Assembly (NCBI RefSeq): GCF_018350175.1
Contig: NC_058382.1
Location: 52,268,001-52,332,000, forward strand
DNA: 64,000 bases
DNA from: Felis catus
Lineage: Eukaryota
Direction of reading: 5' to 3'
Under the pieces are notes generated by a model. That model worked only from the letters and a program-made list of their open reading frames with translations, was not told where the DNA came from and ran no database searches. The translations under genes were made by a program, and so were the position numbers. Each line of letters opens with the position of its first letter. Position 1 is the stretch's first letter. Below, one piece after another: positions 4,171 to 52,101 of the stretch.

Positions 4171-4317
<147 letters not shown>

Positions 4318-16275: not shown

Positions 16276-16990
16276 TTTTTAATTGAGATCTAACTCACAT
16301 GTAATAAAATTCACCCTTTAAAGTGTTCAGTTCATTGGTTTTTAGTATATTCACAGAGTTGTTCAACCGTTACCACTGTTGAATTCCGGAACATTTTCGT
16401 CATCCTGAAAACAAACCCTAACCCATCAGCTGTCACCGTGCAGTTCCTCTCCATCCCAGCACCTCCCTGGCAACCCCCAATCTGTTTATGGTGTCTGGAT
16501 TTGTGGCCTTTTGTGTCTGGCTTCTGTCACTTAGCATAATGTTTTTAAGATTCATCCATGTTCCGCACGTATCGGCCCTCCATTGTCCTTTTTTTTTTTT
16601 TAATTGCCAAATAGGATTCCATTGTATTGATATAATACTTTATGCATTCATCAGTTGGTAAACATTTGGGCAGTTTATACCTTGGGGCTATTAAGAATAA
16701 TGCTTCTATGAACATTCGTGTACAGAGTTTTGTGTGGATGTGTACTGTCATTTGTCTTGGGTGTATGTCTAGGAGTGGAGTCGTGAGGTCATGTGGTGAC
16801 TCTACGTTTAACTTTTTGAGGAACCGTCAACCTTTTCTATAGCTGCTGCACCATTTTACGTTCCTACCAGCAGTGCGTGAGTTTCCGGTTTCTCCACAAA
16901 CTCGCCAACATTTGTTAGTCTTCTTCATGTTCTTCAATTACAGCCATCCTTTCTCATCGTAGCCACCTTAGTGGTTGGGAAGTGGTTATG
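16276..16990 (-). mobile_element. L1MB-like 3' end
   Basis: attgagat...taaaattcaccctttaaagtg...ttttagtatattcacagagttg. ORF 16545..16751 contains the L1 ORF2 C-terminal relic CTRMFIEALFLIAP. Confidence 0.85.
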
Positions 16991-20424: not shown

Positions 20425-22518
20425 TCACGTGTACTGTTCAGTAGTTCTTATTCTATCCACTGGCTTGTGCAACCATTGCAGTATTTCCAGAACATTTGTA
20501 TCACTCCAAAGAGAAACTCGCGCCTGTGCCCATTAGCAGTGATTTCCCACCTCCCACCCCTGCTTCCGCCCTTGGCAACAGCTCGTTTTTCTCTCTCTAC
20601 TGATTTGCCTCTTCCGGACTTCCATATTAGTGGAATCATACAACACTTCATCTTTTGCCCCTGGCTTCTTTCACTTAGCATAATGTTTCTGAGCCATGGC
20701 ACGATCAGTATTTCATTGCTTTTTATGGCCAAATAATATTCCATTACACAGGTAGACCACATTTTGCATATCCATGCATCATTTGGTAGGCATGGGGCAT
20801 ATTTCCACTTCCTGGCAATTAGAAGCAATGCCGCTGTGAACCTTATTCCCAGTGTCTTGCCTTCTTGGAAGAAATCATGGTACTTGGGGGTGAAAGGTGT
20901 TAGAAGGTAGGGTGATTCAGACAGTGAAACGACTCTCTGGGGACCAGTATTCCTCCCATGCTCAACAAGGCCCTTGCCAAGCCCCTCTTGAAGAACGGCC
21001 CACTGGGACGTGCCCAGCGGTCTTCTGATCTTCTAGAAAGCACGTCTCCTGGGGAGAAGTTTTCAAGTCCACAATCACAGCCCACGAGAGACCCAAGATG
21101 TTGTAGTTACCTTTTTCTGTTTGAGCCACCAGCGCAAAGTGACAGGCTGCCTCCAACTTGGGCTCAATTATTTTGTAAAGCTTTTTGTTTATTTGACCTC
21201 TCCTGACCCAGGAAAGAATTCCAACCAATGATGGTTGACTCCCTTTGGCACTGGGGTCTGCTTGCTTTACAGCTGATGACAGAGGGGCCACACTGCTACC
21301 GTATGTGAACTAATCCTTAACTCCTGAGCTGCGCGCTGTTTCCAGCAAGGTTGTATTTCTTCATTAGCTATTCCCAGGGCCCAGGGAGTCCCAGAGGATG
21401 TCAGAGTACATTAATTTTTATCATAACATGGAATCTTTCAGGTCTGAATGGCAGCACACAGCTGTCAGGGGCTTTCTGAACTCGATTACAGCTCCATATA
21501 TCTCTAGGCAAAACAGAGGCAGGAGTCCTCATTGGCAGGGGAATGTACAAAATGCATGAGACGTTTTATTGTTCGAGTAACTTGACCATGCACTTAAGCA
21601 CATTCCCCAGCTAATTTTTTTTCCTGTTGTCCACGTAAGTTCCCCTCTGCCACCCCACTTTAAACCCCCTCCCTTCCCCGTGACCACATAAGGTATATTT
21701 TAACAAAGCTCTTTTGCGTCACGGTAATGAAATCATCATCTGGTACTTAGACAGCTCTTGTGTAAGTATATTAAAAAATGAACATTCCCAAGATGTTTTA
21801 GCAGAATTTATTTAGCAGATTGGTATTGCAGAAGTTTATAAATAATGGCTTGTAATGCTTAATATTGCTTTATGGCTACAAAATACAATTTTAATTCAGA
21901 AGAATGCTAATTTGTTTTCAGAGAGGCGAGTTCTTTCTTCATTGACTTTATATTTTCCGCTTGTCCACAGAGTAGAACGTTTGGAGGGATACATTATACT
22001 TAGAGAAGGATGCCCAGGTATTATTTTCGCCTTGTCAGCAAATGCCAGGAATCCCCTGTGAGCAAGGTCCTGTATTATAGTCACCGCTCGGTGTGCATAT
22101 AAGGACCCTCCCACAAGGAAATCACAGTGAAAGAGACGAGCCAGTGTTTTCAGTTGTGAGGGCAAGTGGATTCTTCATAGGCATGGCCAAATAATTTACT
22201 GCCAGCTCTCGTTCCTTCACTCAAGTGTCGCGGATAATTCTGATTTTTTTCGTAATGGATGTGTTTTCTAAGGCCACGTGCCCTATTCATTTAATTATTC
22301 CCTGTGCCGGACAGCCAAATCGCACGAGCTCTGTGAACCATAGAGCGCTTTCCCAGAGTCCTCATATCACTTTTTATGTATAAGCTGGACACAGGCAAGT
22401 ACTCTATCTTAACACATACTAATTTTTTAAAACTAAAGCCAGAACAGCAGCCCTCCTTAGCAGCTGTTTTTGCAGAGGACAAAACCGAGAAATACAGATG
22501 TTGGTTTCCAGTGCATCG

Positions 22519-33195: not shown

Positions 33196-33344
33196 GGTGT
33201 GTAAATACCTTTTAAGAAACAGTGAGTTAATTGTTTTTTTCTTTAGTGATAAATTCATTCTTTCTTCCAAGCATTTATTATCAATTCTTAATGAAATTAT
33301 TACCATTGACATCATTAACAATATCATTAATATTATGAATAAGT

Positions 33345-33822
33345 AATGAACTAATATCAATTCTTTGCAAACTCTTCCAAAAAATAGGATAAGAAGAAAA
33401 ACTTCTCAACTCACTGTATAAGGCCATTATTACTCTGATTTGAAAACCAGATAAAGGTATCACAAGAAGATTATAGACCAGTAATCACGTAGGAATATGG
33501 TTGTAAAAATATTCAACAAAATATTAACAAACCAAATGCAGCAATATAGAAGACAGATTATGTACCATGGTGAGATGTGATTTATCCAAGGAGTTCTAGG
33601 TTTGTTTAACATCTGAAAGTCAGCGCAGTACATCATATCAGTGAAATAAAAGATATGCCAATAGACACAAAAGGAGCATTTGGAAAATTCTAACACCGTT
33701 TCTGGATCAAAACACTCAACAGACTTGGATTACAAGGGCATTACCTCAACCTGATACAGGCATCTACAAAAAATATCCACACCTAACCTTCTTAATGCTA
33801 TAAGATTGGATACTTTATCTTT
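33345..33822 (+). mobile_element. Ancient L1M ORF2 fragment, left part (split by the 9.2 kb insertion)
   Basis: Degenerate L1 RT-region sequence (aaactcttccaaaaaatag..., aaaatattcaacaaaatattaacaaacc..., acctcaacctgata). It is collinear with the reverse complement of the young L1 at about 35990-36480. Confidence 0.85.
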
Positions 33823-34109
33823 TTTTTTTATCATCCATTTTAATTTTATTTGCATCGTTTAATTTTCTTTTATTTTTTAATTTTTAATTTTTTTAAAATT
33901 TACGTCCAAATTAGCATATAATGCAACAGTGATTTCAGGAGTAGATTCCTTAGTGCCCCTTATCCATTTAGCACATTCCCCTCCCACCATCCCTCCAGGA
34001 ACCCTCAGTTTGTTCTCCATATTTATGAGTCTCTTCTGTTTTGTCCCCCTCTTGTTTTTATAATATTTTTGTTTCCCTTCCTTTATGTTCATCTGTTTTG
34101 TCTCTTAAA

Positions 34110-36880
34110 GTCCTCATATGAGTGAAGTCATACGATTTTTGTCTTTCTCTGACTAATTTCACTTAGCATAATACCTTCCAGTTCCATCCATATAGTTGTA
34201 AATGGCAAGATTTCATTGTTTTTGATTGCTGAGTAATACTCCATTGGATATATATACACCACATTTTCTTTATCCATTCATCCATTGATGGAAATTTGGG
34301 CTCTTTCCATACTTTGGCTATTGTTGATAGTACTGCTATAAACATGGGGGTGCATGTGTCCCTTTGAAACAGCACACCTGCATCCCGTGGATAAATGCCT
34401 CGTAGTGCAATTGCTGGGTCGGAGGGTAGTTCTGTTTTTAGTTTTTTGAGGAACCTCCATACTGTTTTCCAGAGTGGCTGCACCAGCTTGCATTGCCACC
34501 AACAATGCAAAAGGGATCCTCTCTCTCCCCATCCTTGCCAACATCTTTTGTTGCCTGAGTTGTAAATGTTAGCCATTCTGACAGGTGTAAGGTGGTATCT
34601 CATTGTGGTTTTGATTTGTATTTCCCTGATGATGAGTAATATTGAGCATTTTGTCATGTGTCGGTTGGCCATCTGGATGTCTTCCTTGGAGAAGTGTCTA
34701 TTCATGTCTTTTGCCCATTTCTTCACTGGATTATTTGTTTTGGGTGTTGAGTTTGATAAGTTGTTTGTAGATTTTGGATACTAACCCTTTATCTGATACG
34801 TCATTTGCAAATATCTTCTCCCATTCTGTCGGTTGCCTTTTAGTTTTGCTGATTGTTTCCTTCACTGTGCAGAATCTTTTTATTTTGATGAGGTCCCAAT
34901 AGTTCATTTTTGCTTTCGTTTCCCTTGCTTCCAGAGACGTCTTGAGTAAGAAGTTGCTGCGGGCAAGATCAAAGAGGTTTTTTGGCTGCTTTCTCCTCAA
35001 GGATTTTGATGGCTTCCTGTCTTACATTGAGGTCTTTCATCCATTTTGAGTTTCTCTTTGTGTGTGATGTAAGAAAGTGGTCCAGGTTCATTCTTCTGCA
35101 TGTCGCTGTCCAGTTTTGCCAGCACCACTTGCTGAAGAGACTGTCTTTATTCCATCAGATATTCTTTCCTACTTTGTTAAAGATTAGTTGGCTATGTGTT
35201 TGTGGGTCCCTTTCTGGGTTCTCTTTTGTGTTCCATTGATCTGAGTGTCTGTTCTTGTGCCATTACCATTCTGTCTTAATAATTACTGCTTTGTAGTAGA
35301 GGCTCAAGTCTGGGATTGTGATGCTTCCTGCTTTGGTTTTCTTTTTCAAGATCACTTTGGCTATTTGGGGTCTTTTCTGGTTCCATACAAGTTTTAGGAT
35401 TATTTGTTCTAGTTCTGTAAAGAATGCTCGTGTTACTTTGATGGGGATTGCATTGAGTATTTAGATTGCTTTGGGTAGTATCGACATTTTAACAATATTT
35501 GTTCTTCCTATCCAGGAGCATGGAATCTTTTTCCTTTTTTTTTTTTTTTTGTGTCTTCTTCAATTTTTTTCCATAAGCTTTCTATAGTTTTCAATGTATA
35601 GATTTTTCACCTCTTTGGTTACATTTATTCCTAGGTATTTTATGGTTTTTTCGTGCAACTGTAAATGGGATCGATTCCTTGATTTCTCTTTCTGTTGCTT
35701 CACTGTTGGTGTATAGGAATGCAACCAATTTGTGTGCATTGATTTTATATGCTGCAACTTTGCTGAATTCATGAATCAATTCTAGAAGTTTTTGGTGGAA
35801 TCTTTTGGGTTTTCCATGTAGAGTATCATGTCATCTGAGAAGAGTGAATGTTTGATCTTCTGTTGGCCGATTTGGATGCCTTTTATTTCTTTGTGTTGTC
35901 TGATTGTAGAGGCTAAGACTTCCAATACTATGTTGAGTAACAGTGGCGAGAGTGGACATCCCTGTCTTGTTCCTGACCTTAGGGGAGATCTCTCAGGTTT
36001 TCTCCATTGAGGAGGATATTAGCGTTGGGTGTTTCATGTATGGCTTTTATGATCTCAAGGTATGCTCTTTCTATCCCTACTTTCTTGAGGGTTTTTATCA
36101 AGAAAGGATGCAGTATTTTGTCAAATGCTTTCTCTGCATCTATTGAGAGGATCGTATGGTTCTTGTCCTTTCTTTTATTGATGTGATGAATCACTGTAAT
36201 TGTTTTGCAGATATTGAACCAGCCCTGCATCCCAGGCATAAATCCCACCTGCTTGTGGTGAATAATTTTTTCAACATATTGTTGGATCCAGTTGGCTAAT
36301 ATCTTGTTGAGGATTTTTGCATCCATGTTCATCAGGGAAATTGGTCTCTAGTTCTCCTTTTTAGTGGGGTCTCTGTCTGGTTTTGGAATCAAGCTAATGC
36401 TGGCTTCGTAGAAAGAGTTTGGAAGTTTTCCTTCCATTTCTATTTTTTGGAACAGTTTCAAGAGAATAGGTGTTAACTCTTCCTTAAATGTTTGGTAGAA
36501 TTCCCTTGGAAAGCCATCTGGCCCTGGACTCTTGTTTTTTGGCAGATTTTTTATTACTAATTCGATTTCCTGACTGGTTATGGGTCTGTTCAAAGTTTCT
36601 ATTTCTTCCTGTTTCAGTTTTGGTAGTGTATATGTTTCTAGGAATTTGTCCATTTCTTCTAGATTACCCATTTTATTGACATATAATTGGTCATAATATT
36701 CTCTTATTATTGTTTTTATTTCTGTTGTGTTGGTTGTGATCTCTCCTCTTTCATTCTTGATTTTATTTATTTGGGTCCCTTCCTTTTTCTTCTTGATCAC
36801 ACTGTCTAGCGGGTTATCAATTTTGTTAATTCTTTCAAAGAACCAGCTTCTGGTTTCATTGATCTGTTCTACTGTTTGTT

Positions 36881-36916
<36 letters not shown>

Positions 36917-37965
36917 GATAGCATTAATTTCTGCTTTAGTCTTTATTATTTCCTATCTTCTGCTGGTTTTGGGTTTTATTTGCTGTTCTTTTTCCAGCTC
37001 CTTAAGGCATAAGGTGAGGTTGTGTATCTGAGATGCTTCTTCTTTCTTTAGGAAGGCCTGGATTGCTGTATACTTTCCTCTAATGACTGCCTTTGCTGTG
37101 TCCCAGAGGTTTTGGGTTGTGGTGTTATCATTTTCATTGACTTCCATATACTTTTTAATTTCCTCTTTAACTGCTTGGTTAGCCCATTCATTCTATAGTA
37201 GGATGTTCTTCAGTCTCCAAGTATTTATTACTTTTCCAAATTTTTTTACTTGTGGTTCATTTCCAGTTTCATAGTATTGTGGTCTGAAAATATGCAAGGT
37301 ATGATCTCGATCTTTTCGTATTTACATAGGGCTGATTTGTGTCTCAGTATACGGTCTATTCTGGAGAATGTTCCATGTGCACTGGAGAAGAATGTGTATT
37401 CTGCTGCTTTATGGTGAAATGTTCTGAATATATCTGTTAAGTCCATCTGGTCCAGTGTGTCATTCAAAGCTATTGTTTCCTTGTTGATTTTTTGATTAGA
37501 TGATCTGTCCATTGCTGTGAGTGGGGTGTTGAAGTCTCCTACTATTATGGTATTACTGTCGATGAGTTTCTTGATGTTTGTGATTAATTGATTCATACAT
37601 TTGGGTGCCATCAAATTTGGTGCATAAATGTTTGCAATTGTTAGGTCTTCTTGGTGGATAGACCCATTGATTATGATATAATGCCCTTCTGCATCTCTTG
37701 ATACAGTCTTTATTTTAAAGTCTAGATTGTCTGATATAAGTATGGCTATTCCGGCTTTCTTTTGTTGACCATTAGCATGATCGATGGTTCTCCATCCCCT
37801 TATTTTCAATATGAAGGTGTCTTTTGTTCTAAAGTGGGTCTCTTGTAAACAGCATATAGATGGATCTTGTTTTCTTATCCATTCTGTTACCCTGTGTCTT
37901 TTGATGGCAGCATTGAGTCCATTGATGTTTAGAGTGAGTACTGAAAGATCTGAATTTATTGCCAT
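34110..37965 (-). pseudogene. L1 ORF2p (endonuclease and reverse transcriptase), broken into many fragments
   Basis: The EN domain in 37246..37965 has TLNINGLN, CCLQETH, GDFNTPL and SDH. RT-region fragments include KSPGPDGF and [11 protein letters not shown]. The FADD motif reads FSDD at 35830-35841. The C-terminal [11 protein letters not shown]...[14 protein letters not shown] is present. The 3' boundary is approximate. Confidence 0.92.
36881..36915. repeat. (TTG)n microsatellite inside L1 ORF2
   Basis: Read directly. Confidence 0.95.
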
Positions 37966-38076
37966 TATGATGCTTGTAGAATTGGACTTTCTCGTGGTTT
38001 TCTCTGGTCCTTTCTAATCTGTTGTTGCTTTTGGTATTTATTTATTTATATATATATATTTTCATCTTATCTCCCC

Positions 38077-39180
38077 TCAGAGAGTCCCCCTTAAAATTTC
38101 TTGCAGGGCTGGTTTAGTGGTCACAAACTCCTTTAATTTTTGTTTGTCTAGGAAGCTTTTTATCTCTCCTATTTTGAATGACAGCCTTGCTGGATAAAGA
38201 ATTCTTAGCTGCATATTTTTCTGATTCAGCACACTGAATATATCCAGCCACTCCTTTTTGGCCTCCAAGTTTCTGTGGCTAGGTCTGCTGCAAAGCTGAT
38301 CTGTCTTCCCTTGTATGTTAGGGACTTTTTTCCCTTGCTTCTTTCATGATTCTCTCCTTGCCTGAGTATTTTGTGAATTTGACTATGATATGCCTTGTTG
38401 ATGGTCCGTTTTTGTTGAATCTAATGGGAGTCCTCTGTGCTTCCTGGATTTTGATGTCTGTCTTTCCCCAGGTTAGGAAAGTTTTCTGCTATGATTTGCT
38501 CACATAACCCTTCTACCCCTATTTCTCTCTCTTCCTCTTCTGGGACCCCTATGATTCTCATGTTGTTCCTTTTTAATGAGTCACTGATTTCTCTATTTCT
38601 TAAATCGTTCTCTTTTGCCTTAATCTCCCTCTTTTTTCCTGCTTTTTTATTCTCTATAAGTTTGTCCTCTATATCACCGATTCTCTGTTCTGCCTCTTCC
38701 GTCTTGCATCCATCCATGATTGCAGCTCAGTTATGGCATTTGTAATTTCATTCTGGGTATTTTTTATTTCTTTTATCTCTGCAGAAAGGGATGCTAATAT
38801 ATTTTCGACTCCAGCTAGTATTCTTAATATCGTGATTCTAAATTCTGGTTCAGGGGCGCCTGGGTGGCACAGTCGGTTAAGCGTCTGACATCAGCCAGGT
38901 CACGATCTCGCGGTCCGTGAGTTCAAGCCCCGCCTCGGGCTCTGGGCTGATGGCTCGGAGCCTGGAGCCTGTTTCTGATTCTGTGTCTCCCTCTCTCTCT
39001 GCCCCTCCCCCGTTCATGCTCTGTCTCTCTCTGTCCCAAAAATAAATAAAAAACGTTGAAAAAAAAATAAAAAAAAATAAATTCTGGTTCAGACATCTTG
39101 CTTGTATCTGTGTTGGTTAAATCCCTGTCTGTCGTTTCTTTGTGCTCTTTCTTTTGGGATAAATTCCTTCGTTTTGTCAT
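38077..39180 (-). pseudogene. L1 ORF1p (RNA-binding protein), disrupted by a SINE insertion and frameshifts
   Basis: ORF fragments MTKRRNLSQKKE (start 39180), DSLKRNNMRIIGVPEEEE (38421..38717) and RILYPARLSFKIGEIKSF...LQEILRGTL (38077..38268) are typical of L1 ORF1p. Confidence 0.9.
38853..39077 (+). mobile_element. Young felid-type Can-SINE (SINEC_Fc-like) inserted in L1 ORF1
   Basis: ggggcgcctgggtggc head, CpG-rich body, (CT)n region and A-tail. Perfect 14-bp TSD taaattctggttca (38839-38852 and 39078-39091). Confidence 0.95.
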
Positions 39181-39261
39181 TTTGAATGGAGAAAAGTTAT
39201 TAATGAGGTAGAAAAATGCAAGTAAAATATTAAAATTAAGAAAGTATTAAAATAAAAAATT

Positions 39262-39262
<1 letters not shown>

Positions 39263-39301
<39 letters not shown>
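39263..39301. repeat. (CA)n microsatellite in the L1 5'UTR
   Basis: Read directly. Confidence 0.95.
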
Positions 39302-39302
<1 letters not shown>

Positions 39303-39409
39303 AAAAATCGAATAGATGTTGCTACATACTAGATGTGTTTTGGTCTGGGTGTTGAAAGTCGTTTGACAGATGAGAGAAAAAAAAAGGGTGGGAGGAAAAA
39401 AAAAGGAAA

Positions 39410-40115
39410 TTGAGAATTTGAAAAAATGAATACACTGAAGTAGACTAAAATGAGATGATGGGGGTAAAATAGAATTTGAAGAAATATACACAAAAGTAAA
39501 GAATATAGTAGGACAAAAATTAAAAATGTTTTTAATCAAAATTAAAAATAAATATGAATTTTTTCTTTTCTGTATTTAAGAAAAAAGAAAAACGAAAAAG
39601 AGAAAAAAGATAAAAGAAAAAAGATATTTGAAAATTTGAAAAAGTCAATACACTGTAGTAGACTCAAATGAAATGATGGAAATAAAATAGAATTTGAAAA
39701 AAATTACATAAAAGGAAAACACATATTAACGAAAATTAAATAAGAATATTTTTAATAGAAATTGAAAGCAAAAATGAAGTTTTTTCTTTCTGCTTTTAAG
39801 AAAAAGAAAACAAACAAAAGAAAAAAATGAAAAAAAGAAAAAATGGAAACTGTTCGAAAATTTGAAAAGGTGAATACACTGAAGTAGACTAAAATAAAAT
39901 GATGGGAGTAAAGTAGAATTTGAAAAAATTTACACAAAAGTAAAAATACAGTAATAAAAATTAAGGATATTTTTAATAAAAATGGAAAATAAAAATGAAT
40001 TTTTTCTCTTTCTGTATTCAAGTAAAAGAATTGCGAAAGAGAAAAAGAAAAAACAAAAAATAAAGAAAATTGAATAGATGAACCTGCTAACAGACTGAAG
40101 TAGGACTCAAATTGG
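39410..40115. repeat. Tandem array of a ~220-bp AT-rich unit (3 copies plus a partial) in the L1 5'UTR
   Basis: The anchor tacactg(a/t)agtagact recurs at ~39431, ~39649 and ~39875, and degenerately at ~40092. aaaatagaatttgaa and atgaattttttct recur with the same period. Confidence 0.88.
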
Positions 40116-41275
40116 TTTCTTTTCCCCTAGAAGTCATTCTCTGTAGTTCTGTATAGTCCATAAATTAAGCCAGCGGTGAGACTTGTGTTCTTGAGGAGCT
40201 AAGTTGGCCCAGTTGGACGAGGCTCAGTGTAACAGCTCTGCTCTCCACTAGAGGGTGCTGCTAGCCTACTGGGGTGGATTGTTGCAGTGCTCGTTGGTGT
40301 GCATGGGCAGGAAGAGGTGTAAATGGCGCCACCCACCTACCCAGTCTGTTCTCCCTGATAAGCAATCGCGCCCCTGTCCTCTGTCTTCAGCTCTCGTCCA
40401 CTCCCCGCTTCTTCACTCTTCGCGACCAGGCCCCAGGCAGTACCTCTCTCCCACGTTTTGTCTCAGATGTGGCTGTTTTCCCCAGCCCCTTACTTCCGAA
40501 GGGCTGCGGCTTTGGCCCCTTTCGTCCCTCTGCCGGACGGTCTCACTGAGCAATGGCCAAATGAGTATTTGCCGAATATCGGCTGCACCCAGGAACGCCT
40601 GCTGGACCCTGTGGTTGCCGGTGCCCCGAGACCGTGGCCAGGTGCCAGCCCGCCCCAGAAAAAGTTCGCGAGACAGTGTAGCAGCAGCGTCTCAGGGATT
40701 ATGGAAAATCACAACACACATCTGGCACCAGGCTTCACTCTTAACAATCTTGCCCCAGCACCAGTGAATGTGGCCGCCTTCCAGGGTCTGCTGGGATCAG
40801 GTGGCTTCAGCAGTCTCTACCGGATGTCCTTCCAGCAGTGGAACCGCTTTTTCCCGTGTGGCCCGACAACCTCCCGGACCCCACTCTGTTCCTGGGGACT
40901 CGCCCTTCCCACCAGAGCACCGCCAGCTATCGAGCTGCGGAGTTATAGCCTTTGCGCTCCCCTTGTTTACAGTCTTAATGGAATTTAAACCCTCTCCTTT
41001 CTTCTTTCTCCCTTTTTAGTTTAGTCCCTGCGGCTGTTTCCAATTTGCCACTTTCTCTCCAGCTGCTTTTGGGGTGGGGTGCTTTTCCCGTATTCTCCCC
41101 CCACAAGTCTCCATCATCTCTCTGCCCGCAAAAACGGTTCCTTACCTTTTGCGGCTTCTAGCTCCCCAAGGTCATTTCTCCATGCCGGGAACCTGCTGAT
41201 TTCTGTGGTTCAGGTTGTGCAGATTGTTGTGTTAATCCTCCAGTCAGTTTTCTGGGTGTGTAGGATGGTTTAGTG

Positions 41276-41864
41276 TTGCATTGTTTAATTTTTAAAAGAT
41301 ATTACAATTGTGTTGTACAGACAAGTTACATGTGTACATCAATTTAATGATTATATTGTTCTTTATTACCTTCTACATACCCATTACTATTTGAAATTAG
41401 TTTCTATCTTTTACTCAGAAGTGTTGGCAGCAAATCGTCTTCTTATTGGTTTATCTGAAAATGTCTTTATTTATCCTTACTTTTTGGTGGGAACATTCTG
41501 TAGGTATACAATTCTAGGTTGGTAGTTACAGTCTTTGAGCAATTTAAAAATATCATTACATTTATTTTTGTCTTTCCTCATTTCCATTGAAATGTCATCT
41601 GCCAATCTTATTCTTTGCTTTATTGAAACCAATGTGTCTTGTTTTCTCTAGGGCCTTTTCAATTTCTTGCCCCTTGTTTTTGATTTTCGCCGTTTATTCT
41701 GTAATGTGCTTAAAAGATGTTGCCTTTGTATTTATCCTATTTGTGCTTTGCTGTGTTCATTGCATCTGTGGATTGATATTTTCTCTTTTCTTCTACAAAC
41801 ATCTACCACATGCTTCTTAAGCTCTGGTCTATGATTTTCTTTTTATTGCATTGTTATTTCTCTG

Positions 41865-41895
<31 letters not shown>

Positions 41896-42088
41896 CTATG
41901 TTTCATTTTTGTATTTTCTATAAGTCTGTGTTTAATTTTAATTATTTAGTGTTCTGTGTCCAATATATTTAAACACATATATTAATATATTAATCTCAGA
42001 TATTGCATTTTTTCCAATTCCAGACAGTTCTTTTTATTATTTTTCAAAATTAAAATCTCTAGTGAAATTCAGAATCTTTACATTGACC
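41276..42088 (-). other. Putative L1 3'-transduced genomic segment (continues at 33830-33849); itself resembles a decayed ancient L1M-type fragment
   Basis: It lies between the tail of the truncated L1 and a terminal AATAAA plus poly(A), all inside one outer TSD (see findings). Confidence 0.7.
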
Positions 42089-42104
42089 TTTTTTTAATTT
42101 TATT

Positions 42105-42323
42105 AAAAAAATTTTTTTTCAACGTTTATTTATTTTTGGGACAGAGAGAGACAGAGCATGAACGGGGGAGGGGCAGAGAGAGAGGGAGACACAGAATCGG
42201 AAACAGGCTCCAGGCTCTGAGCCATCAGCCCAGAGTCCGACGCGGGGCTTGAACTCACAGACCGCGAGATCGTGACCTGGCTGAAGTCAAGACGCTTAAC
42301 CGACTGCGCCACCCAGGCGCCCC
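42105..42323 (-). mobile_element. Young felid-type Can-SINE inserted in the poly(A) tail of the truncated L1
   Basis: Near-consensus, CpG-rich copy. TSD taattttatt (42095-42104 and 42324-42333). Confidence 0.93.
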
Positions 42324-43002
42324 TAATTTTATTTTTTATTTAAAAATTTTTTTTTATTTTTTATTTTTTTAATTTTTTTTTTTATTTTTTAAAATTTACA
42401 TCCAAGTTAGTTAGCATATAGTGCAACAGTGATTTCAGGAGTAGATTCCTTAGTGTCCCTTATCCATTTAGCCCATCCCTGCTCCCACAATCCCTCCAGT
42501 AACCCTCAGTTTCTTCTCCATATTTATGAGTCTCTTCTGTTTTGTTCCCCTCCCTATTTTTATACTATTTTTGTTTCCTTTCCCTTATGTTCATCTGTTT
42601 TGTCTCTTAAAGTCCTCATATGAGTGAAGTCCTGTGATTTTTGTCTTTCTCTGATTGACTAATTTCACTCAGCATAATACCCTCCAGTTCCATTCACGTA
42701 GTTGCAAACGGCAAGATTTCATTGTTTTTGATTGCCGAGTAATACTCCATTGTATATATATACCACATTTTCTTTATCCATTCACCCATCGGTGGACATT
42801 TGGGCTCTTTCCATACTTTGGCTATTGTTGATAGTACTGCTATAAACATAGGGTGCATGTATCCCTTGGAAACAGCTCACCTGTATCCCGTGGGTAAATG
42901 TCTAACAGTGCAATTGCTGGGTCGTAGTGTAGTTCTATTTTTAGTTTTTTGAAGAACCTCCATACTGTTTTCCAGAGTGGCTGTACCAGCTTGCATTCCC
43001 AA
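42324..43002 (-). mobile_element. 5'-truncated LINE-1 3' end (~0.6 kb plus A-rich tail), same family as the long L1
   Basis: 42391-43000 is visibly a close copy of 33895-34500 (e.g. gcaacagtgatttcaggagtagattccttagtg). ORF 42840..43046 contains [16 protein letters not shown]. Confidence 0.93.
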
Positions 43003-44415
43003 GAATACTTTACCTTTAAGATCAGAAAAGAAAACATGGATATCAAATTTTACCAGTTACATTCCATATTGTGCTGGAAATTCCAGCCAAAGTAATTGGG
43101 GTAGGGGGAGACATTCTGATTGGAAAGGAAAGAGTAAAACTATCTTTATTTGTGGGTGAAATGACCTTATGTGTAGAAAATACTAAGAAACCCACATTAA
43201 AGTATTAAAACTAATAGATAATTTAAAAAGAACTCACAAAACTAATTGATAATTTCAGCAAGATTAGAAGATAAAAAATCAATATGAAAAAATCAATTGT
43301 ATTTGTATATACTAGTAACTAACAATTTCCAAATTAAATTAAGAAATCAATGCAAATTGCCATATCATTAGAAAGAATAAAATACTTATGAATACATTTA
43401 ACAAAAGATGTGATAAATTTCTATTTTGAGACCTATAAAATATTGTAGAAGGAAATTAAAGACCTAAATGCATATAAAGACATCCCATGTTCATAGATCA
43501 AGACGTTTAATATTGTAAAGAGGACAGTATTCTCAAAATTGATCTGTAATTTTAATGTAAACATTACTAAAATTGCAGTTGGCTATTTTGCCAGAAATTG
43601 AAAGCTGATTCTAAACTTTTTATGTGCATACAAAGGCCCCAGACTAGCCAACCCAAGCTTGAAAAATAACAAAGTTTAAGGACCTTCATTTCCCAGTTTT
43701 CAAAATTTACTCCATAGGGGCACCTGGGTGGCTCAGTTGGTTAAGCATCTGACTCTTGATTTTGGCTCAGGTCTAGACTTCAGGGTCTTGAGATCAAGAC
43801 CTGAGGTGGCTCTGGCTCTGGGCAGACTGAGGAACTTGCTTAATATTCTCGTTCTCCCTCCCTGTCCCCCCATGATTCCATAGCTGGTGCTCAATGGGGC
43901 ACTATCCTTCTCTCTCAACAATAACTATATTTATATATATAAATATATATAACTATATATATGTAAAATGTTTATAACATATATAAAATGTTACGTATAT
44001 ATGTATGTTGTTGTTACTACAAAGCATTAGTAATAAAGACTGTAGTAGTAACATAAAAGAATATAACAGAGAGTCTCATAATAAACTCTTACAGGTGGTC
44101 ACTTGATTTTCCTCAAGGGTGCTGAGACAATTCAATGCAGGCAAGAGTAGTCTTTTTAACATACGAAGCTACACTTGGAATGCCCGCTTGCCAGAGAATG
44201 AAGTTATTGCTTGCCTTCACTGTCTATCCATGTTAAGCTTCCATGGAGCATAGATCTAAATGTAGGAGCCAAACCTAGAACTCTTAGGAGTGAAGATAGA
44301 ACTGCATCTTTGTGATGTTGGGTTAGGGAATGCTTTCTTAGATATGACCCCTCAAGCACAAGAGGCGAAAGAAAAATGTATATATAGCTCATATTTCCTC
44401 AAACTTAAAACTCAG
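43003..44415 (+). mobile_element. Ancient L1M ORF2 fragment, right part (interrupted by the SINE at 43717)
   Basis: It resumes exactly where the left part stops (taagatcag...gtgctggaaattccagcc) and continues with typical ORF2 sequence such as aaagacatcccatgttcatagat and aatgctttcttagatatgacc. Confidence 0.85.
43717..43925 (+). mobile_element. Can-SINE (old type) in the ancient L1, followed by an (AT)-rich tail to ~44010
   Basis: ggggcacctgggtggctcagttggttaagc head with degenerate TSD ttactcca / ttactaca. Confidence 0.85.
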
Positions 44416-44992
44416 AAAGAAGATAATTTAAGACATTTTGGGTTCCACCCACCCCTAGAGATAACTACTATTCACACTTTTGGCTGTGCTTCATAAATAT
44501 TTTGTGTGTGTGTTTGTGTGATCATACAATATTATATCTTTTGTTTTGTAGCATGCATATTTTACAGGGTTGAAAGATCTATCATTTTAATGGCTGTGTA
44601 GTATTCTATCATATGCATCCCATGCAAATTCATTACATGATTTCCCAGTTTTATATGTCATTTATTTCTACATTTTGCTTTCATATTGTAATTGCAGACG
44701 CTGTGGGTAGCCTTGAATAAATGACATTTTAACAATTTTTATTAATATATTAGGATGATTTCCCACCAGCACCACTTCTCTGTGAGGCTTTGGGATTTTG
44801 ATTCATATGATGAAAGGCTTACTTTTATTTTTTTTTAAATTTTATTATGAAACAAATTAAATATAAACACAATGGGAGAAAATAGTATAATAGATCTCCA
44901 CTTACCCATCCCCACGGCTCATTCATTTCTGTTGTCTAGATGTAATTTGACCTCTGAAAGGAATATATTCAAACATTGTATGCCTCTCTCTC

Positions 44993-45411: not shown

Positions 45412-45871
<460 letters not shown>

Positions 45872-51447: not shown

Positions 51448-52101
<654 letters not shown>

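Follow-up and report, generated by a model that had tools for sequence, protein, structure and literature searches.

Background

L1 3' transduction, the copying of a long interspersed element 1 (L1) together with its downstream flank, has been found in 2.5-8.8% of the non-reference L1s of apes and macaque and in 7.5% of those in human (PMC4862182). A set of 268 high-confidence human cases spans 8-997 nt with a median of 63 and is mostly intronic (PMC9311842). In dogs, 18 and 322 LINE-1 3' transduction loci, many of them parentless, have been reported, together with nested LINE-1/SINEC "Matryoshka" alleles that display target-site duplications (TSDs) (PMC7980453, PMC13103737). Among the CanSINE short interspersed elements (SINEs), subfamily II carries a diagnostic heptamer and is described as felid (PMC4084570). 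Here, we describe a 9,180-bp insert in the genome of Felis catus, the core of which is very probably a 1,525-bp L1 3' transduction that subsequently received three ordinary insertions. The insert is contained in a stretch of 64,000 nt (contig NC_058382.1, positions 52,268,001 to 52,332,000, forward strand), hereafter the window, to which all coordinates refer. A literature search, judged by titles and openings of abstracts and with subscription papers thinly covered, found neither a felid 3' transduction nor this particular locus.

Results and discussion

An ancient L1 interrupted by a 9,180-bp insert

The 9,180-bp insert splits an ancient + strand L1 ORF2 (Table 1). Both halves of this ORF2 were aligned separately to that of the long L1 present within the insert, and the scores were compared with those of shuffled sequences. 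The left half aligns over 33340-33797, ending at long L1 position 36005, with a score of 320 versus 95+-10 in 50 shuffles; the alignment of the right half begins at 43013, which corresponds to long L1 position 35985, with a score of 301 versus 118+-10 in shuffles. With the TSD counted once, the two halves are separated by 20 nt as compared to 19 nt in the long L1 and are thus colinear within 1 nt, indicating that the target retained its sequence without loss and gained one extra 15-bp copy. The right copy of this outer TSD ends with CTTT and is followed by AA, the L1-endonuclease consensus being 5'-TTTTT/AA (PMC7980453). A first-pass annotation of the window had proposed an ORF2 interrupted at 33822 and resuming from 43003, with a 15-bp duplication containing two mismatches at a TTT/AA site, and all these elements were recovered.

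The outer-TSD 15-mer is not rare window-wide, where it has five matches at <=3 mismatches versus 3.0 expected. Its position was tested with pairs of 25-bp zones sampled from this ancient L1 sequence; of just under 20,000 such pairs, 5 had a 15-mer in common at <=2 mismatches. The weight of the outer TSD rests on its position and not on the rarity of the 15-mer.

The transduced unit and its cargo

Removing the later inserts (7,426 bp for the long L1 and its SINE, including one TSD, and 229 bp for the SINE found in the tail) leaves a unit of 1,525 bp composed of 612 bp of L1 3' end, 73 of A-rich tail, 833 of carried segment and 7 of A-tract. A complete L1 3' terminus and its A-rich tail occur directly upstream of the carried segment. 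The L1 3' end (43002-42391), the tail, the segment, the AATAAA and the T-tract were all located as initially annotated.

Table 1. Features of the nested insert, its target and the adjacent host exons (window coordinates).
Feature	Coordinates	Strand	Remarks
5'-truncated L1 3' end, 612 bp, transducing element	42391..43002	-	48/601 columns differ from long L1 3' end
Short L1 A-rich tail, 73 nt	42089..42390	-	CanSINE-interrupted at 42105-42323
Carried segment, main part	41293..42088	-	Ancient L1 ORF1 fragment; second copy elsewhere, about 89-95% identical
Carried segment, last 20 nt	33830..33849	-	AATAAA at 33850-33845, 15 nt ahead of A-tract
Terminal A-tract of transduced unit	33823..33829	-	7 nt outside TSD, 10 with TSD
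Ancient L1 ORF2 fragment receiving the insert, left half	33340..33807	+	67% to long L1 36486-36005
Ancient L1 ORF2 fragment, right half	43018..44426	+	63% to long L1; holds unrelated older SINE at ~43715-43870
Outer TSD, left copy	33808..33822	+	13/15 identical to 43003-43017
Outer TSD, right copy	43003..43017	+	Ends at L1-endonuclease-like TTT/AA site
Long L1 TSD, left copy	33850..33866	+	16/17 identical to 41276-41292
Long L1 TSD, right copy	41276..41292	+	Followed by TAAAA
Long dead L1, ~7.4 kb	33867..41275	-	Tail 33867-33894; broken ORF2 (endonuclease and reverse transcriptase pieces) and ORF1
CanSINE in long L1 ORF1	38853..39077	+	TSD 38839-38852/39078-39091; felid subfamily II motif 38952-38958
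CanSINE in short L1 tail	42105..42323		TSD 42095-42104/42324-42333
Host exon 5' of intron	4228..4316	+	AG/GT bounded; 30-aa piece
Host exon 3' of intron, SDR domain	45673..45858	+	adh_short E 2.7e-05, below cut-off; AG/GT splice sites

The 0.83-kb carried segment, initially taken for unrelated sequence, turned out to be a fragment of an ancient - strand L1 ORF1. Positions 41296-42067 align in the same orientation to the long L1 ORF1 region at 37953-38787 with 64% identity and a score of 244, as compared to 150+-10 (maximum 182) for 100 dinucleotide shuffles. One of five translated pieces of the segment matches Pfam Tnp_22_dsRBD (E 0.0043, below cut-off), and the Pfam search gave no match for the four others. 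When the two ends of the segment were aligned alone to the long L1, shuffles performed as well in 670 and 786 of 1000 cases, so that ORF1 derivation is demonstrated for the middle of the segment only. As an ancient L1 fragment, the carried segment is far older than its carrier L1.

A second version of the segment in public sequencing runs

Further support came from public data, in which a second copy of the segment was detected. Twenty of the 24 sequencing runs listed, from three coded organisms and nine studies and with no outgroup among them, contain 0.82-0.97 of the words of the segment; runs X21-X23 (share 0.00) were left out, as giving no evidence either way. Four runs (X5, X6, X17 and X24) were aligned to 41236-42135 at 80% likeness, and the extents of the two reads detailed below were estimated from depth bins.

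Contigs of the locus itself have 0-1 letters that deviate from the window (X5 record 14; X17 records 3, 5, 7 and 8). X6 record 22, which also belongs to this locus, spans the long L1 junction and lacks 4 bp of the TSD. A second version of the segment, about 89-95% identical, is present in three of the four runs, representing three organisms, and displays shared variant sites. In X17, record 6 covers 41587-41807 with 14 differing letters (14/221) and occurs beside an own-locus contig with none. Seven of these 14 sites are carried by an X24 read having ca. 8 differences in ca. 148 nt, while another X24 read, near 41906-42043, has 15 differences in ca. 138 nt and shares site 41909 with X6 record 23 (41802-41946, 4 differing letters and 4 gap bases). 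Among the 822 X24 reads aligned, not one reaches 99% likeness to the window, and two further reads of this run, near 41296-41609, may also derive from the second copy. Contamination is unlikely, given that these variants recur in three organisms and across separate studies. The paralog of 41293-42088 that the first-pass annotation had predicted elsewhere in the genome is represented in the public runs of three organisms.

Other origins were considered for these sequences. X17 record 6 was rejected as an allele or a contaminant because it is too diverged, the pieces of the second version differing from the window by 5-11%, and because its sites recur in another organism and another study. That the second version is merely another ancient L1 copy was also discarded, by inference, since ancient copies here are only ca. 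64-67% alike. Within the window, a self-BLAST of the segment revealed no paralog, its matches being confined to simple repeats and a single weak one to ORF1, and an exact 24-mer from the segment retrieved no metagenome contig.

Two side observations concern these runs. Of the 14 differing sites of X17 record 6 (41617-41777), 6 are G in the window and A in the other copy, the reverse occurring at 2; this skew could reflect a transcription-linked mutation bias in the intron, the numbers being small and the polarity uncertain. Polarising 16 variants against the long L1 gave 10 for the window, 3 for the second copy and 3 uninformative, a comparison that is alignment-biased and was not used. The other observation relates to X5 record 14, which extends 336 letters to the left of 41289, and these do not correspond to the long L1 5' end. 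No X5 contig passes over 41281, the long L1 junction, and the contig of X17 record 3 ends exactly at 41279. The X5 extension could correspond to an allele without the long L1, to a deletion or to a chimeric join into the second copy; since a precise loss of the long L1 would predict a match up to at least 41283, the chimeric join is favoured.

It is conceivable, yet unlikely, that the 833-nt tag marks a traceable family of ancient felid source L1s, with the other copy being sex-linked or still varying between animals, and that, in addition, the dead 7.4-kb L1 is missing from some present-day alleles. The first part of this proposal is based on the second copy being found in X6, X17 and X24 and not in X5, and on its contig depth lying below that of the intron copy; the second part is based on the X5 extension beyond 41289 and on the lack of an X5 contig over the long L1 junction. 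If true, a large fragile-site gene would harbour five layers of insertions together with a structural polymorphism that persists today.

Order and relative age of the insertions

The nested TSDs define an order in which the ancient L1 was followed by the transducing L1, the long L1 and then two SINEs, as had been proposed. This order agrees with the decay of the TSDs, which contain 2/15 mismatches for the outer one, 1/17 for that of the long L1 and 0/14 and 0/10 for those of the SINEs. It also agrees with pairwise divergences, the 3' ends of the short and long L1s differing at 48 of 601 columns (8.0%, or 6.7% outside CpG) and the two CanSINEs at 7/205 (3.4%). The divergence between the two copies of the flank (5-11%) is near the 8.0% of the L1s and well above the 3.4% of the SINEs, which fits a duplication that took place while the family of the short L1 was active, as expected for a carrier L1 that was still young at that time.

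Proposed mechanism and alternative explanations

The 1,525-bp unit is thus most satisfactorily explained by 3' transduction, as first suggested: the L1 and the segment lie inside one TSD, in an intact target and at an endonuclease-type site, the L1 3' end and its tail are complete, and the segment has a second copy. An active L1 located elsewhere, with a decayed fragment of an ancient L1 ORF1 as its immediate downstream neighbour, would have been transcribed past its weak poly(A) site, 3' end formation occurring, as established L1 biology would suggest, ca. 830 nt downstream of the source L1. The ORF2 protein would have nicked the TTT/AA site in the ancient L1 of this intron, and reverse transcription would have begun at the 3' A-tract of the RNA. 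Copying would then have proceeded through the flank (833 nt) and the tail (73 nt) into the L1, where it stopped after 612 nt by 5' truncation, generating the 15-bp TSD; the anatomy of these products is directly visible, the mechanism itself being borrowed from established L1 biology. A second L1 of similar age next inserted into the carried segment, 37 nt away from its 3' end, where the 17-bp TSD is found, and two young felid CanSINEs followed, one in the long L1 ORF1 and one in the short L1 tail, as their positions show. All inserted elements are presumably dead, antisense to the host gene and most likely neutral.

Several observations weigh against this interpretation. The two copies of the outer TSD differ at 2 of 15 positions. 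The carried segment (833 nt) holds 8 AATAAA, 7 of which are upstream of the terminal one, and the terminal T10 has 3 of its T's inside the TSD, only 7 being outside. In addition, the last 27 nt (33823-33849) show a weak similarity to the A-rich beginning of the L1 ORF2 (30/1000 shuffles as good, uncorrected for multiple tests); given this likeness the terminal A-tract may be partly encoded, an encoded run having perhaps been used for priming or cleavage. The AATAAA and the second poly(A) annotated at the end of the unit were confirmed in their positions, 15 nt apart, and carry less weight as evidence than first implied, the hexamer being 1 of 8 and the 7-nt A-run possibly encoded. As for the second copy, it is known in pieces only, which display shared variant sites over 41587-42043 and may begin as far left as 41296. 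Neither of its ends is among the pieces listed, hence neither the source L1 nor genomic sequence past the AATAAA was seen. Finally, no variant contig was found among those listed for X5, which is not a proof of absence because assemblers collapse bubbles.

That the source L1 was not seen leaves room for a retrocopy made in trans, in which a host RNA containing a dead, truncated L1 3' end and its flank was copied by the proteins of another L1, with 5' truncation falling within the L1 piece, the short L1 being a mere passenger. The TSD and poly(A) hallmarks are indeed common to retrocopies and transductions (PMC4862182). The L1 divergence of 8.0% is, however, close to that between the two flank copies, indicating an L1 that was young at the time of duplication, and the L1 piece is about as old as the duplication, while the cargo is a decayed L1 ORF1 and is neither exonic nor spliced. 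L1 proteins also show cis preference, and we regard a retrocopy as improbable.

Two separate insertions, in which an orphan flank arrived first and generated the outer TSD before the short L1 landed at the 5' end of this flank, would require a double landing at one site, itself improbable. A separate TSD was sought for the short L1: the bases left of the tail (42072-42091) bear a loose likeness to the right TSD, but this likeness needs two indels and the best ungapped match is only 9 nt with 1 mismatch, so that very little credit can be given to this scenario. A DNA-level duplication or templated repair with no RNA step, or a second copy that would be a later duplicate of this locus, is equally hard to credit: a terminal A-tract that is short and possibly encoded and a second copy whose listed pieces lack its ends would suit it, but not a 15-bp TSD at an endonuclease-type site in a target without loss, nor the polarity from A-tract to truncated 5' end, which fits target-primed reverse transcription.

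The long L1 and the CanSINEs

The TSD of the long L1 has only its own two copies as matches in the window at <=3 mismatches (0.43 expected), their sole mismatch being of CpG type. Pfam matches in this element correspond to RVT_1, Exo_endo_phos, Transposase_22 and Tnp_22_dsRBD, and its longest stop-free stretch over ORF1 and ORF2 amounts to 255 codons, indicating that the element is dead. Other genomic L1 copies match it as far as 41278, beyond which they have additional 5' untranslated region (5'UTR), and the long L1 is therefore 5'-truncated in its 5'UTR with a 3-nt microhomology (41276-41278). Between the GC-rich 5'UTR and ORF1, a stretch of ca. 0.8 kb (39264-40100) is T-rich in the sense orientation and has a dinucleotide run; tandem units of 218 bp (2.9 units) were detected at 39399-40030. 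A 208-codon stop-free frame (40362-40988, + strand) lies antisense to the long L1 5'UTR and sense to the host gene; an Atlas search with this frame gave a best score of 0.78 and no credible match, and the frame is probably a compositional accident. The TSDs of both SINEs are perfect, with 14-15/14-15 identities for the one in the long L1 (38839/39078) and 10/10, in low-complexity sequence, for the one in the tail (42095/42324).

Host gene context

The window consists of mammalian intronic DNA with short-chain dehydrogenase (SDR)-family coding pieces at 4228-4316 and 45673-45858 and a further stretch near 51800. A Pfam search with the 30-aa piece encoded at 4228-4316 gave no match. We take the gene to be WWOX, with these three pieces as exons 6, 7 and 8, respectively; of the earlier assignment of the insert to WWOX intron 6, only the SDR-family character of the exons was confirmed. 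The inserted elements are antisense to the host gene and come no closer than ca. 2.7 kb to any exon, and no exon has been moved. Nothing suggests any effect of the nested inserts on the host gene or any sign of function, and they are most likely neutral. Two more old L1 3'-end fragments occur on the - strand of the same intron, at ca. 16500-16860 and 20710-20820 (62-70% to the short L1).

Comparison with known systems

Transduction is a textbook process, already catalogued in humans and dogs, to which the felid locus adds one clean and well-preserved example. As a marker, the carried tag can lead back to an old source L1. The nested TSDs place the events in relative time, from the ancient L1 through the transduction and the long L1 to the two SINEs, a series that is usable in felid phylogeny. 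The locus also illustrates that transductions with old-L1 cargo are easily missed.

As compared to primate L1 3' transductions, the felid unit has the same organisation, with a TSD-flanked L1, a segment, an AATAAA and a putative poly(A), and is likewise 5'-truncated and intronic (PMC4862182, PMC9311842). It differs by its 833 nt, which fall near the top of the length range obtained there from short reads (PMC9311842), by being old and apparently fixed whereas those cases are polymorphic, and by a cargo that is itself ancient L1, a class that tends to be dropped by the repeat filters of catalogues. The SINE located in the long L1 has the diagnostic heptamer of Feliform CanSINE subfamily II at 38952-38958 (PMC4084570) and is 96.6% identical to the tail SINE, the subtype resting on this heptamer. 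Finally, the dog systems share with this locus a carnivore L1 transduction and the nesting of SINEs in L1s with TSDs (PMC7980453, PMC13103737), while the felid elements are older and dead and are more deeply nested, from the old L1 through the transduced unit and the long L1 to the SINE.

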